Part shown: piece by piece, positions 33,766-38,540 of the stretch
Position numbering within the stretch: the first letter of the stretch is position 1
Layout of the letters: every line of letters begins with the position of its first letter
Sequence record: KP869105
Strand: one strand, 5' to 3'
DNA: 64,000 nucleotides
Source: Escherichia coli O157 typing phage 7
Notes under the pieces: generated by a model
Seen by the model: only the letters and a program-made list of their open reading frames with translations
What the model was told of the DNA's origin: nothing
Database searches by the model: none
Translations under genes and position numbers: made by a program

Positions 33766-33769
33766 CAAT

Positions 33770-33795
33770 GGGGACCGAAAGGTCCCCATATTTTT
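33770..33795. terminator. bidirectional hairpin terminator between gene 54 and the minus-strand early block
   Basis: GGGGACC-GAAA-GGTCCCC followed by ATATTTTTATTT. Confidence 0.65.
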
Positions 33796-34084
33796 ATTTA
33801 CGGAATGAAATAAAAGCAGCAACTGAAGCAACAGAGGTTTCTTCAATATAAACCTCAATTTTTACCGGAGCTTCTGACTCAAATTTACCTGTTACTACAC
33901 CTTGGAAAATACTTTCAGTCTGTTCTGGCTTTGAAAAATTTTCAGAAGGAAAAATTCCGAACTTTTTATCTGTTCCAAAAATTTTGATAAATTCATCGTA
34001 AACTGCTTCATTGAAAGCGTTATCAGCGGGAATAACGCCTTCAACGACGAGTTCTTGACCTAAAAAGCGCAAAGAAGATTTCAT
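33794..34084 (-). CDS. hypothetical protein downstream of the alt genes
   Basis: 96 aa; GAGGA Shine-Dalgarno; own early promoter/stem-loop cassette upstream. Confidence 0.55.
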   Translation of the reverse strand: MKSSLRFLGQELVVEGVIPADNAFNEAVYDEFIKIFGTDKKFGIFPSENFSKPEQTESIFQGVVTGKFESEAPVKIEVYIEETSVASVAAFISFRK

Positions 34085-34092
34085 TTTGTGTT

Positions 34093-34145
34093 CCTCATGT
34101 TATGTCAGTAAGACTACTATAACACAACATGAGGGACTTGTAAAC
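34093..34145 (-). promoter_or_regulatory. T4-type early promoter with stem-loop (PeSL-like cassette), copy A
   Basis: Minus strand: GTTTAC, 17 nt, TTATAG-type -10; 9-bp inverted repeat CCTCATGTT/AACATGAGG around the -10; GAGGA Shine-Dalgarno follows. Confidence 0.6.
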
Positions 34146-36202
34146 TACATTTTGAACTTTTTAGACATTCCGTTGATGTTAACCAAAGAAGCTAAGATTT
34201 GAGAAACTTCGTTTTCCTCTTCTTTTGATTCTTCTACAAGGAATTGATTAAATCCAGCCATTGGACGAACTTCACCAGTTTCCATTAGATGGTCGCCATC
34301 ATATACTGATTCTTCTAATTGTTCAGAAGGAGGAACGATTGTACCTTCGATTAGATACTTGTTATAAGCAGTTTCTTTCATAAAGTAAGTACTTACTTTA
34401 TTAATCTTCAGTAAAATTCCACGTGGTAGAATAACTTCAGCTTCTGATGGAAATCCTGACAAATGACCTGGAACGATAACTTTAACTCGTTCAGCTCCTT
34501 TAATTACCATACCCACGCTAGTTTCAGCATCTTCATTAGCATATGTAGAATGACTACCCATATGCATCAAATCTTCTGCATCAACGGAACCTTCTCCTTC
34601 ACCAGAAAATACTGCTCCGGAATTATCTAAGGCCATATAATTTTTACCATACTCACCAAAGATATTTGGTTTAAGTGATGTCGATACGAAGTTCTTGAAA
34701 TAGAACATTTTATTTTCAATGTTATGACGCAAAGTTTTAAAAGTAACTTCTTGTCCACGGTAAAGTGTAGTTCCTGGAGGAAGAACTGAACCTTTAGCGA
34801 ATGCAGAATCCAGCGTCTCAATATGTTTAATAGCTCGTTCCATATATTCTTCACGTGTAGAATCAGGTTTACCTAAAAGGAATGAGTTCATTTCAACATA
34901 CGAATCTGCGCAATAATCTTCAATTACATCAGACTCAGCCTGAGTCAATCCTTTTGGAGTTACTTCAGTGCTTGCATATTCATACGCCTGAGCAGCGGAT
35001 TCATCAATTAATTTATAAATGCCATTCATGACAAATTGAATAATAGCTGTCTTTTCATCTGGCGTAGCTTTAGAACCTTTAACTAAATCATTGACAATTT
35101 TCTTAATAACATCAAAGCTATTAGAAATATTAATGTCAGCAAGATCGCTTAAAATTTTATCAGTTTTATAATCAAAAAATTCTTTATTCTTTAAATATTC
35201 TTGAGAACTTTGATATGTTATATCGCTCTGCAACTTGATAGATGGATCACGTAAACGTGCATGGGCTAATGCAATATGATTTCGGAAGCTTTCTAGTTCA
35301 TAATCGTTAGATTTAAAACGAGAAGCACTTCTCATACCACCGATAGCTCCTTTGCTGAAGTTTGAACCAATCTGAATAACGCCAGAGTTCATTGGTCCTT
35401 CTGCTTTATATACCGGAACTTTAGATTCAAACTCTTGATATTTCTTAGCAGCGAAGCTATCACCCTGAAGTGAAGCATCAACAGTAGAATATTGAGCTTG
35501 TGCTGCTAATCGACGGCTAATTTTAGTTTTCTGAATAACAGCTTGATCCGTACGCTTATCATTTTCTAAAGCAATAGAAGCAGCAACTGCGACAGCTTTA
35601 GGAACAGCATTACCTGTTTTAACGTCTACATAAACATCACCAACCTTTGATTCAACTTTTGTGAATAACTCAGTTGAAATAGGAGGTACACCTGGAATGT
35701 CTTCTAAATTGGCATTTTTACGGTAAACCATAATATATGCATATTTCTTATCATAGTCCCAGATTTCCTTTAAAAGAACATATCGACCTGCTCCTTTAGT
35801 ACGTACTAAACGGTCAGCAATAACTTGCATTTGACGAGCAGCGCCGTTTGTTTTACTTTTTAGTACGCGGAATAGGCATGCATCAATTTTATACTGTTTC
35901 ATTGTTTGAAGAGCAGTATCAAAAACCGCATTAATGACGCCAATTGGATTTCCACCCAAGTTTTTAAGCTTAACTAACGATAATTTCTCGTTGACGCCTA
36001 TCATTACGATATGCATCATTTTGTCGCCTGGCTTAACGTTTTTATTCGTATCACCGCCAGAGGTGTATGTACAAAATCTAAATCCAGGAAGCACGCTTTC
36101 TTCACCGGCTTGAATAGCAAAAATTTGTGGTATTTTATGCTTAGGATTTAAGTTAACAACCGGCGCCGAAGCGCCGTCAAATAATTCTGTAATAAGTTCC
36201 AT
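34145..36202 (-). CDS. Alt-family ADP-ribosyltransferase, paralog A (candidate alt.-1)
   Basis: 685 aa; N-terminus MELITELFDGASAPVVNLNPKHKIPQIFAIQ parallels the upstream paralog; R-S-E ART motifs (LYRGQE, FVSTSL, SEAEVILPRG). Confidence 0.85.
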   Translation of the reverse strand: MELITELFDGASAPVVNLNPKHKIPQIFAIQAGEESVLPGFRFCTYTSGGDTNKNVKPGDKMMHIVMIGVNEKLSLVKLKNLGGNPIGVINAVFDTALQTMKQYKIDACLFRVLKSKTNGAARQMQVIADRLVRTKGAGRYVLLKEIWDYDKKYAYIMVYRKNANLEDIPGVPPISTELFTKVESKVGDVYVDVKTGNAVPKAVAVAASIALENDKRTDQAVIQKTKISRRLAAQAQYSTVDASLQGDSFAAKKYQEFESKVPVYKAEGPMNSGVIQIGSNFSKGAIGGMRSASRFKSNDYELESFRNHIALAHARLRDPSIKLQSDITYQSSQEYLKNKEFFDYKTDKILSDLADINISNSFDVIKKIVNDLVKGSKATPDEKTAIIQFVMNGIYKLIDESAAQAYEYASTEVTPKGLTQAESDVIEDYCADSYVEMNSFLLGKPDSTREEYMERAIKHIETLDSAFAKGSVLPPGTTLYRGQEVTFKTLRHNIENKMFYFKNFVSTSLKPNIFGEYGKNYMALDNSGAVFSGEGEGSVDAEDLMHMGSHSTYANEDAETSVGMVIKGAERVKVIVPGHLSGFPSEAEVILPRGILLKINKVSTYFMKETAYNKYLIEGTIVPPSEQLEESVYDGDHLMETGEVRPMAGFNQFLVEESKEEENEVSQILASLVNINGMSKKFKM

Positions 36203-36205
36203 GAT

Positions 36206-38302
36206 TTATCCTTGAACGAACTTGTAAGGCATGTTTGTAATATCTATGCAAGACGCAATAATTCCAAGAGATGATTCTACTTTCTGTTTAACATTTGATG
36301 AAACAAATGATGCAAAGTCAACTCTGTCTTCTATTTCAATATCACCTGTCATTGCAACCAATTCACCAGTTTCCATTAAATGGTCTCCGTCATAGATTAC
36401 CGATTCGGTGAGCTCTTCCGTGGTCATAACTTCAGCTTGAATGAGTTTTGTATTATTAGATGTTGTTCCGTCATTATTAGAAGCATCAGTTATTTTATTA
36501 ACTTTGACCATCAATCCACGCGGTAGAATAACTTCAGCTTCTGTTGCTATTCCGAGACTTCCTGGATATACAACATTAACTTTATGAGCTCCATCAATTG
36601 CCCATCCTATTTGAACTTTAACGTATTCAGGATTTTCTTTATACGCTCTTATTTCGTTTGGATTAATAGTTATTCCTTCTTCATTTTTATCAACTGTTAA
36701 TTCATTGCGAGCTTCTGGTTCTAAAAGACCAATACCAGCATGTGTGATTCCAAAACGTCCAAAAATGATAGGAGTTAAAGAAGTAGATACAAAATTTCTG
36801 AAGTAGAACACTTTATTTTTAACTAACGCTTCATATATAGGAGCAGTCATACTTTGAGCACGATAAACTGTGATGCCTTCCGGTATGCGGTCACCATTTT
36901 CAAAAGCTGAATCTAAGTTATTTATAGCAGATTCAATTTCTTTTTCACTCATTACATCATATCGTTCTGGATTGTAACGACCTAAAAGAAGATTATTGAT
37001 GTCAGTATATCCTGAACCGCAATATTCTCTAATGCCACGCTTTTGTGATGGAGTATATTTAGAACCATCGCGGGCAATAGTAATATCAATCATTGGACCA
37101 GCACCAATTCCAGAAAAACTGTAAATCATTCGTTTGAGGAATTTAGTTTTTGCTGCGTTCCAGGAATTTTTAGTTATTTCTTCCCAGACTTCATCTGGTT
37201 GTCCTTTACGATTTTTATTATGATTAGCAAGCCATTTATCTTTATAATCTTCAAAGAATTGATTTACAGCTGCTGCGTATTTCTCTAAACATTTTATTGA
37301 AGTAGTTGGTTCATTTTTAATTGCATTAAAAATTACTTCTTTAATTTTTTCTGAAACTTCACCGACTTGACTCATTGGAAAGAATTTATAATCATAGTGA
37401 AGTTCATCTGCCGTTCCTTCAGCAATAATTTTTGCTGCCTTTGTTTTAGAAGCTAATGAATTAATTCCAATTTTCATTTCTTCTGCTTCGGGAATTAAAG
37501 GTGCAGTAGCTGGTTTATTAAAATTAGCTGCTGTAGATTCATACTTCTGGAATAATTCACTTTCAAATCTAGAAGATTCCAATGACTGACTTTGTGCAAT
37601 TGCTCTACGGGAAATTTTAACTTTAACGATTACGGCTTGGTCAGAACGTTTATCATTTTCTTGTGCAATAGATGCAGCAATTGCCTCATTTTTGGTTACT
37701 TGAGCTCCAGTATCTTTATTGATATAAACATCACCGACCTTCGATTCAACTTTAGTAAAGAGCTCGGTGCTAATTTCTGGAACTCCTGGAATGTCTTCTA
37801 GTGATACATTTTTACGATGTATAAGAATATATGCATACTTTTTATCGTAATCCCAGAGTTCCTTAAGAAGGACGTATCTGCCACCTGAACGACTACGGAT
37901 AAGTCTATCAGCAATAACTTGAATTTGTCGAGCTTGGCCAGCAGTTTTAGACTTAAGAATACGAAGCATACAAGCATCAATTTTATATTGACGCATTGTT
38001 TGCATTGCAACAGTAAAAACTGAATTGATATAATTAATTGGGCTTGGACCAAGACCTTTTAATTTAGCAATTGAACCTTTAGCAGTTAATGTAAAAGGAA
38101 CAATGTGCATCATTTTGTCGCCCATTTTTAAATCGCGATTAGTATCACCTCCAGATGTATATGTACATAAACGAAAGCCTGGTTGTTCAATTGCATCATC
38201 AACATGAACTGAAAAAATTTGTGGTATTTTCTTCTTTGGATTTAAGTTTGTAATCGGAAGAGTAGTATCTTCGTCAAATAATTCTGTAATAAGTTCCATC
38301 AT
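36206..38302 (-). CDS. alt: Alt ADP-ribosyltransferase (packaged, modifies host RNA polymerase in T4)
   Basis: 698 aa from first ATG (second ATG at 38299); N-terminus MELITELFDEDTTLPITNL as recalled for T4 Alt; R-S-E motifs (VYRAQS, FVSTSL, TEAEVILPRG); late promoter box upstream. Confidence 0.9.
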   Translation of the reverse strand: MMELITELFDEDTTLPITNLNPKKKIPQIFSVHVDDAIEQPGFRLCTYTSGGDTNRDLKMGDKMMHIVPFTLTAKGSIAKLKGLGPSPINYINSVFTVAMQTMRQYKIDACMLRILKSKTAGQARQIQVIADRLIRSRSGGRYVLLKELWDYDKKYAYILIHRKNVSLEDIPGVPEISTELFTKVESKVGDVYINKDTGAQVTKNEAIAASIAQENDKRSDQAVIVKVKISRRAIAQSQSLESSRFESELFQKYESTAANFNKPATAPLIPEAEEMKIGINSLASKTKAAKIIAEGTADELHYDYKFFPMSQVGEVSEKIKEVIFNAIKNEPTTSIKCLEKYAAAVNQFFEDYKDKWLANHNKNRKGQPDEVWEEITKNSWNAAKTKFLKRMIYSFSGIGAGPMIDITIARDGSKYTPSQKRGIREYCGSGYTDINNLLLGRYNPERYDVMSEKEIESAINNLDSAFENGDRIPEGITVYRAQSMTAPIYEALVKNKVFYFRNFVSTSLTPIIFGRFGITHAGIGLLEPEARNELTVDKNEEGITINPNEIRAYKENPEYVKVQIGWAIDGAHKVNVVYPGSLGIATEAEVILPRGLMVKVNKITDASNNDGTTSNNTKLIQAEVMTTEELTESVIYDGDHLMETGELVAMTGDIEIEDRVDFASFVSSNVKQKVESSLGIIASCIDITNMPYKFVQG

Positions 38303-38322: not shown

Positions 38323-38330
38323 TATTTATA
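38323..38330 (-). promoter_or_regulatory. T4 late promoter box on minus strand (alt)
   Basis: Plus-strand TATTTATA about 20 nt upstream of the alt start. Confidence 0.6.
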
Positions 38331-38351
38331 AAATTAAAGGCCCGAAGGCCT

Positions 38352-38540
38352 TTAGTAATCTAGTGGTAAGAGAGTACGATATATTTCAAACTTTGGTCCT
38401 TTTTCATAGGCATCAAATGTTTCTGTAAATTTATTGTAAGCATATGCATCTACAAATTCGAGAATGACTTGTGATACAGAAGTAGAAACATCTCCACCTT
38501 CTTTTTGAGCAATGACAATTGTTTCTAAGTAAGCTTTCAT
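38352..38540 (-). CDS. hypothetical small protein
   Basis: 62 aa; start overlaps DNA ligase stop (ATGA). Confidence 0.5.
   Translation of the reverse strand: MKAYLETIVIAQKEGGDVSTSVSQVILEFVDAYAYNKFTETFDAYEKGPKFEIYRTLLPLDY

Follow-up and report, generated by a model that had tools for sequence, protein, structure and literature searches.

Two tandem Alt-family ADP-ribosyltransferase genes in Escherichia coli O157 typing phage 7 and the remnant of the second gene in phage T4

The window analysed here, 64,000 nucleotides of Escherichia coli O157 typing phage 7 (sequence record KP869105), contains on its minus strand two adjacent genes of the Alt family. Alt is the textbook case of an enzyme that enters the host together with the phage DNA, and what is known of it derives almost wholly from phage T4. 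The first gene, copy 1, is alt itself in the type of allele found in T2, T6 and wV7 (36206..38302; 698 aa counted from the first ATG), and the second, copy 2, is a full-length alt paralogue (34145..36202; 685 aa); the genes, motifs and signals located below lie on the same strand. We consider it probable that the two genes encode packaged and injected arginine ADP-ribosyltransferases (ARTs) whose substrates differ at least in part. The 4.9 kb of the window that were tested are 100% identical to Escherichia phage wV7 (HM997020 / NC_019505, genus Tequatrovirus), for which RefSeq lists the proteins YP_007004937 and YP_007004936, each named "Alt-like RNA polymerase ADP-ribosyltransferase"; there the second ATG of copy 1 (38299) is taken as the start, giving a protein of 697 aa that begins MELITELFD. 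The gene pair as such is already known, annotated and widespread. A first-pass annotation of the window had located the two adjacent open reading frames (ORFs) of 698 and 685 aa correctly and had allowed that they might be new, but the pair is annotated in the wV7 RefSeq record and in hundreds of others; T2 and T6 both carry it as proteins of 697 and 685 aa, and RB14 has it too. As a genome-scan finding it is therefore ordinary, an annotated pair that was correctly recognised. The useful additions are that T4 is a natural copy 2 knockout, that T2 and T6 have both enzymes together with a different alt allele, and that the locus behaves as modular and recombining.

The assignment of both copies to the Alt family, with intact catalytic residues, is supported by profile matches and by the motifs themselves. 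In Pfam, PF03496 (ADPrib_exo_Tox, ADP-ribosyltransferase exoenzyme) matched copy 1 at 1e-37 and copy 2 at 7e-20, in each case across all three motifs, and the Alt-like family phrog_802 matched both proteins over their full length (residues 1-696 of copy 1, 2.6e-273; residues 1-685 of copy 2, 1.7e-256). A cluster representative 98% identical to copy 2 carries PF03496 and PF26846, and NCBIfam holds no model for either copy. The Alt-specific N-terminal 238 residues are 100% identical to those of T4 Alt in copy 1 and 67% identical in copy 2. All the motifs quoted in the first-pass annotation are present. In copy 1 they read VYR480AQ (R480 at 36860-36862), FVS505-T-S507L (STS at 36779-36787) and E587-A-E589-VILPRG (ExE at 36533-36541), and in copy 2 LYR482GQ (R482 at 34757-34759), FVS507-T-S509L (STS at 34676-34684) and E587-A-E589-VILPRG (ExE at 34436-34444). 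The five catalytic residues (R, S-T-S, E-x-E) are invariant among 17 aligned Alt relatives, down to 42% identity. Both copies thus show the features of the R-S-E clade, namely an Arg in beta-1, Ser-Thr-Ser, Glu-x-Glu and the ART fold, and surveys of ARTs place Alt in the Alt/VIP2 R-S-E clade (PMC5512222, PMC9503650). Glu-x-Glu, present in both, is the arginine-specific form of the Q/E-x-E motif, and the NAD+-dependent transfer of ADP-ribose to protein arginine is established for T4 Alt (PMC11404850, PMC5512222). T4 Alt is inactivated by the substitution E577A, which makes the second Glu of ExE essential (PMC11404850). This residue is E576 in the RefSeq numbering of T4, because the alt genes of T4 and wV7 (38299-38302) both start with ATGATG and the first Met had been counted; it corresponds to E589 in both wV7 copies.

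The AlphaFold2 model of copy 2 (predicted local distance difference test score, pLDDT, 75) consists of an alpha/beta N-domain at about residues 12-225, a helical centre at about 250-415, an ART domain at about 420-625 and a disordered tail at 629-685, and the model of copy 1 has the same architecture. Copy 2 models as a C3/Vis-like transferase fold. A sequence search of the PDB returned no solved Alt structure; copy 1 had weak CDTa/iota matches only and copy 2 had none. On the DNA, copy 1 divides into the N-propeptide MELITE (38282-38299), the N-domain (37586-38299), the helical centre (37064-37585), the ART domain (36416-37063), an L-T-E cleavage motif (36404-36412) and the C-propeptide (36209-36403). 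The corresponding parts of copy 2 are the N-propeptide MELITE (36185-36202), the N-domain (35489-36202), the helical centre (34958-35488), the ART domain (34328-34957), an L-E-E cleavage motif (34310-34318) and the C-propeptide (34148-34309).

The two copies are 41% identical over 719 columns (BLASTP, E 1e-161), which is far beyond chance, and the identity is unevenly distributed: 68% in the N-terminal part (aa 1-238) versus 17% in the centre (239-415), with intermediate values of 37% for the ART domain (416-625) and 42% for the C-tail. The shared N-terminus and diverged centre described at first sight are thus real. Compared with T4 Alt (gpAlt, NP_049811), copy 1 is an orthologue with the same locus, late promoter, R/STS/ExE residues and prohead-protease (gp21) sites, and its N-terminal 250 and C-terminal 65 or so residues are near-identical to those of T4; however, it represents another allele, with 72% identity overall and an ART domain that is 66% identical in amino acids. 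In architecture, motifs and processing sites copy 2 agrees with T4 Alt, but it is 41% identical to it overall and has an unrelated central domain (9% identity there). The residues just before ExE also follow lineage in the 17-sequence alignment, reading [FY]-P-x-E-x-E in the copy 2 lineage and being non-aromatic in the copy 1 lineage. In C3/iota-type toxins an aromatic residue at that place of the ADP-ribosylating turn-turn (ARTT) loop contributes to substrate recognition. Because the central domains are unrelated in sequence and these loop residues differ by lineage, it is plausible that the substrate ranges of the two enzymes differ at least in part. A HMMER search with the copy 2 central domain (aa 239-415) against 1.84 billion cluster representatives gave 0 matches but missed close relatives too, and is uninformative; since phage genomes do contain close relatives as well as ones with 45% identity, the empty result is probably an artefact of the clustering or of the representatives and is not read as an absence of relatives.

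The divergence is old. When copy 2 is set against the genes next to alt.-3 in the Dhakavirus phages QL01 and dhabil, identity is 44-45% in the centre, 60% in the ART domain and 61-66% in the tail, and the ...KFKM end is common to them. Since copy 2 is closer to these genes than to the copy 1 beside it, the duplication predates the split of the genera; by this comparison copy 2 belongs to an old lineage of paralogues, with positional orthologues that adjoin alt.-3 in Dhakavirus. This bears on the simplest alternative, that copy 2 is a redundant dose or backup, packaged and active on the targets of Alt itself (RNA polymerase alpha and others) and contributing nothing except more injected enzyme. 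Architecture, catalytic motifs, propeptides and operon are indeed common to both copies, and T4-type phages, as well as the chimeric phage vB_EcoM_SCS4 described below, remain viable on a single ART body, whichever its type. We nevertheless regard redundancy as unlikely given how little identity is left in the central and ART domains and how consistently the residues before ExE differ. Moreover, the two lineages stay separate from one genus to the next, copy 2 being nearer to the Dhakavirus gene QL01_c than to its own neighbour, and such a separation is not expected for a simple dosage duplicate.

As for packaging, T4 Alt is trimmed by gp21 at ITE-6, which removes six N-terminal residues, and at LTE-619, which removes 63 C-terminal ones, leaving a mature protein of 68.2 kDa (PMC5694885). 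An in-silico cut of T4 Alt at these two places gives 68.2 kDa as well, and reproducing this mass indicates that the cleavage sites were mapped correctly. The corresponding sites are ITE-6 and LTE-632 in copy 1, with a predicted product of 70.1 kDa, and ITE-6 and LEE-631 in copy 2, with a predicted product of 69.2 kDa. Both sites of each copy align with those of T4 Alt and are invariant in the 17-sequence alignment; the Glu of the C-terminal site (E631 in copy 2) and the S-x-YDGD..E.GE that follows it are invariant across the family, and the segment past the C-terminal cut is acidic and is disordered in the models of both copies. Mainly because copy 2 retains both propeptides and the Alt-specific N-domain, we infer that it is packaged like Alt. 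Alternatively, copy 2 might not be a virion protein and might act late inside the producing cell, in the manner of a Mod-type enzyme, or modify phage proteins. T4 ModA and ModB fall in the same Alt/VIP2 R-S-E clade of phage ARTs and, unlike Alt, are not injected from the phage head (PMC5512222). The packaging of copy 2 is indeed predicted from motifs, and literature searches found no virion proteomics covering it. However, the wV7 proteins have the architecture of Alt and not that of Mod. Copy 2 keeps the MELITE propeptide, first 240 or so residues that are 68% identical to Alt, and the C-terminal L-x-E site with its propeptide; it lies in the same late operon as alt, and natural chimeras exchange the N-domain between the copies with the ORF kept. 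A role outside the virion therefore seems quite improbable to us.

The expression signals are consistent with a joint late operon. A T4-type late promoter box, TATAAATA (38323..38330), was found where the first-pass annotation had put it, 21 nt upstream of the first ATG of copy 1 (38302), and is identical in T4, T2, T6, RB14, KIT03 and PhiZZ23. In omics data T4 alt behaves as a late gene (PMC9697503). Also as described there, copy 2 starts 3 nt after the copy 1 stop; the gap is ATC, contains no intergenic promoter for copy 2, and the copy 2 ATG is preceded at 6 nt by the Shine-Dalgarno sequence AAGGA. Since the gap is only 3 nt long, we infer that copy 2 is co-transcribed with copy 1 from the promoter at 38330. 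A second TATAAATA occurs within copy 1 at 36919-36926, 717 nt upstream of the copy 2 ATG, and was present in all six T2/T6/wV7-type alleles examined, whereas the T4 allele is without it. As a separate late promoter of copy 2 (36926..36919) it was set aside as one that cannot be judged, because it lies inside a conserved coding motif (codons A-I-N-N) and such boxes are frequent in the window, with 18 observed against 9 expected.

These elements suggest the following mechanism. Both late genes would be transcribed together from the TATAAATA promoter, and translation of copy 2 would be coupled to that of copy 1 through the short gap and its own Shine-Dalgarno sequence. Each product would have four parts: an N-terminal alpha/beta domain behind a six-residue propeptide cut after MELITE, a helical centre, an ART domain of the C3/VIP2/Vis-like R-S-E type, and an acidic, disordered C-propeptide. 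Both proteins would enter the prohead core, be cut by gp21 to products of about 70 and 69 kDa and be injected with the DNA, and both would then mono-ADP-ribosylate arginines of host proteins with the use of NAD+. Copy 2 is thus most likely a second packaged, injected arginine ADP-ribosyltransferase. The N- and C-terminal modules shared by the copies would at the same time serve as recombination substrates, giving rise to chimeric single-gene loci and to exchange of ART cassettes. In T4, separately, copy 2 was lost through a frameshift and a repeat-mediated deletion.

Several points weigh against this reading. Literature searches found no experimental evidence for production, packaging, processing, injection or activity of copy 2, and nothing on what the second paralogue does, whether virions contain it or which proteins it targets; they returned only two genomic remarks on Alt duplications. 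In these, ORF187c of phage 44RR is described as a full-length alt duplicate and alt.-1 and alt.-2 of T4 as partial ones (Nolan et al. 2006, PMC1524935), and alt duplications are listed for ZZ1, Ac42, JS98 and Bp7 (Jin et al. 2014, PMC4177764). The proposal of different targets is drawn from sequence divergence, both structural models were built on the shallow 17-sequence alignment, and the models are poor in the loop that joins STS to ExE, with pLDDT below 50 at residues 516-519 of copy 2 and at 516-520 and 528-537 of copy 1. In addition, T4 and 91 records lack copy 2, and even alt is non-essential (PMC5694885), so that whatever selective value copy 2 has must be conditional.

Copy 2 is nonetheless retained in about 80% of the sequenced Tequatrovirus records, T4 being the exception. 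It was found at full length and at least 90% amino-acid identity in 401 phage records, and the T4-type deletion junction in 91 of 497 matching phage records. Among wV7, RB14, KIT03 and PhiZZ23 the ratio of nonsynonymous to synonymous substitution rates (dN/dS) ranges from 0.012 to 0.067 in copy 2 and from 0 to 0.04 in copy 1, and by this measure both genes are maintained under purifying selection, strong in the case of copy 2. A pseudogene was rejected on the dN/dS values and the conservation of the ORF, and the view of copy 2 as a paralogue in decay or without catalytic activity is strongly disfavoured and very improbable, in spite of its loss by frameshift and deletion in T4 and the 91 records. 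Copy 2 also occurs at 98% amino-acid identity in PV654520.1 ('Pseudomonas phage vB_PSGBLB0006', 142 kb) and OL741432.1 ('Proteus phage Isf-Pm2'); the host labels of these two records look doubtful, as both appear to be E. coli-type Tequatroviruses.

The fate of copy 2 in T4 can be read in some detail. There alt is followed by two small ORFs, alt.-1 (NP_049810) and alt.-2 (NP_049809), which a note in the T4 record explains by an old duplication affecting the first part of alt. In the alignment these ORFs match the first 118 or so codons of wV7 copy 2 almost perfectly, and not those of alt, and phrog_23015 (residues 1-56) and phrog_15247 (62-117), which represent the parts kept in T4, score about twice as high with copy 2 as with copy 1. 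Within copy 2 there is an A-run, AATAAAAACG (36037..36046), that is one A short in T4; this 1-bp loss causes the frameshift that splits alt.-1 from alt.-2. T4 also has a deletion of 1699 bp, mapped at its junction, whose endpoints are the two occurrences of the 9-bp direct repeat CTAAAAAGT, upstream at 35855..35863 and downstream at 34156..34164. A partial alt duplication was rejected, since the alignment, the DNA junction and the PHROG scores all fit the decay of a full-length paralogue. Taken together, the near-perfect copy 2 start, the frameshift and the 1699-bp loss show that T4 alt.-1/alt.-2 are the wreck of a full-length copy 2. The first-pass annotation had been uncertain whether T4 carries the same second copy and had considered that both ORFs might turn out near-identical to T4 alt and alt.-1; they are not, and as T4 holds two fragments of a decayed copy 2, it does not carry the same second copy. 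In RB14 and T6, copy 2 bears the name 'alt.-2', and the T6 record speaks of an 'apparent insertion in alt.-2'. T4 is accordingly a copy 2 knockout of natural origin, and the mechanism of its deletion is defined.

Copy 1 exists in two alleles, the wV7/T2/T6 type in 318 records and the T4 type in 173, so that the alt of T4 is the minority allele. At the nucleotide level the two types are 97% identical in the flanks and 47-69% identical in the centre and ART domain. Phage DalCa combines a T4-type alt with an intact copy 2, which shows independent assortment of the alt alleles and copy 2. The sample in which the exchange of cassettes and the concerted evolution of the N-domain were judged comprised 12 loci. 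The single alt gene of Escherichia phage vB_EcoM_SCS4 (686 aa) has the N-terminus of copy 1 joined to the centre, ART domain and tail of copy 2, and this chimera apparently arose by recombination within the shared N-domain; the database proteins P0003, P0005 and P0007 are chimeras of the same kind, with breakpoints near residues 45, 190 and 220. Between genera, wV7 copy 1 and QL01_a, the first of the QL01 Alt genes, have ART domains that are 95% identical in amino acids and 84-93% in nucleotides, although their N-domains are 47% identical in amino acids and 41-60% in nucleotides, and this difference suggests that the ART cassette was exchanged between genera. The N-domains group by genome. They are 42-47% identical between genera for any paralogue and therefore genus-specific, and those of QL01_b and QL01_c are 89% identical, a grouping that points to concerted evolution or to co-adaptation with the head. 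By these comparisons the locus behaves as a set of modular, recombining effector cassettes on a constant packaging scaffold formed by the N-terminal domain and both propeptides. Other T4-like tandem Alt loci (44RR, JS98, Bp7, ZZ1, Ac42 and QL01) occupy the same locus, with a copy number of 1 to 3. QL01 has three tandem Alt genes, and wV7 is without its third lineage, QL01_b.

The pair is flanked by alt.1 and the DNA ligase gene (gene 30) on one side and by alt.-3 and gene 54 on the other, and lies on the strand opposite to the baseplate genes; the gene order is that of T4. The alt.1 homologue (38352..38540, 62 aa) forms the conserved left border of the alt locus and has a match (E 2e-29) to PF24647 'Phage_blade', a recent addition to Pfam. 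It is closed by a terminator-like hairpin, TAAAGGCCTTCGGGCCTTTA, with a T-run (38335..38354), just ahead of the alt late promoter, and in phage DalCa a rho-independent terminator is annotated at the same place. Downstream of the pair lies the alt.-3 homologue (33794..34084, 96 aa, DUF5498). An early-type promoter-like site at 34116-34144 (GTTTACA, 17 nt, TATAGT, with TG) abuts the copy 2 stop and precedes alt.-3, and because of this site of its own (34144..34116) the alt.-3 homologue is probably outside the late alt operon. A bidirectional terminator hairpin at 33768-33789 separates alt.-3 from gene 54. Mutants of T4 with a C-terminal extension of Alt.-3 escape the CmdTAC defence system (PMC11618068); no functional tie between alt.-3 and the ART genes was found.

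A wider interpretation, which we offer tentatively and hold to be possible rather than likely, is that the alt locus is a recombining array of injected effectors, in which cassettes of central domain plus ART move between alleles and genera and copy 2 has targets of its own. If so, these targets might be defence or stress proteins, and the picture of host takeover drawn from T4 would be incomplete for T2, T6 and most of their relatives. Should copy 2 be packaged and act on substrates of its own, T4 and its relatives would modify different sets of host proteins during the first seconds of an infection.

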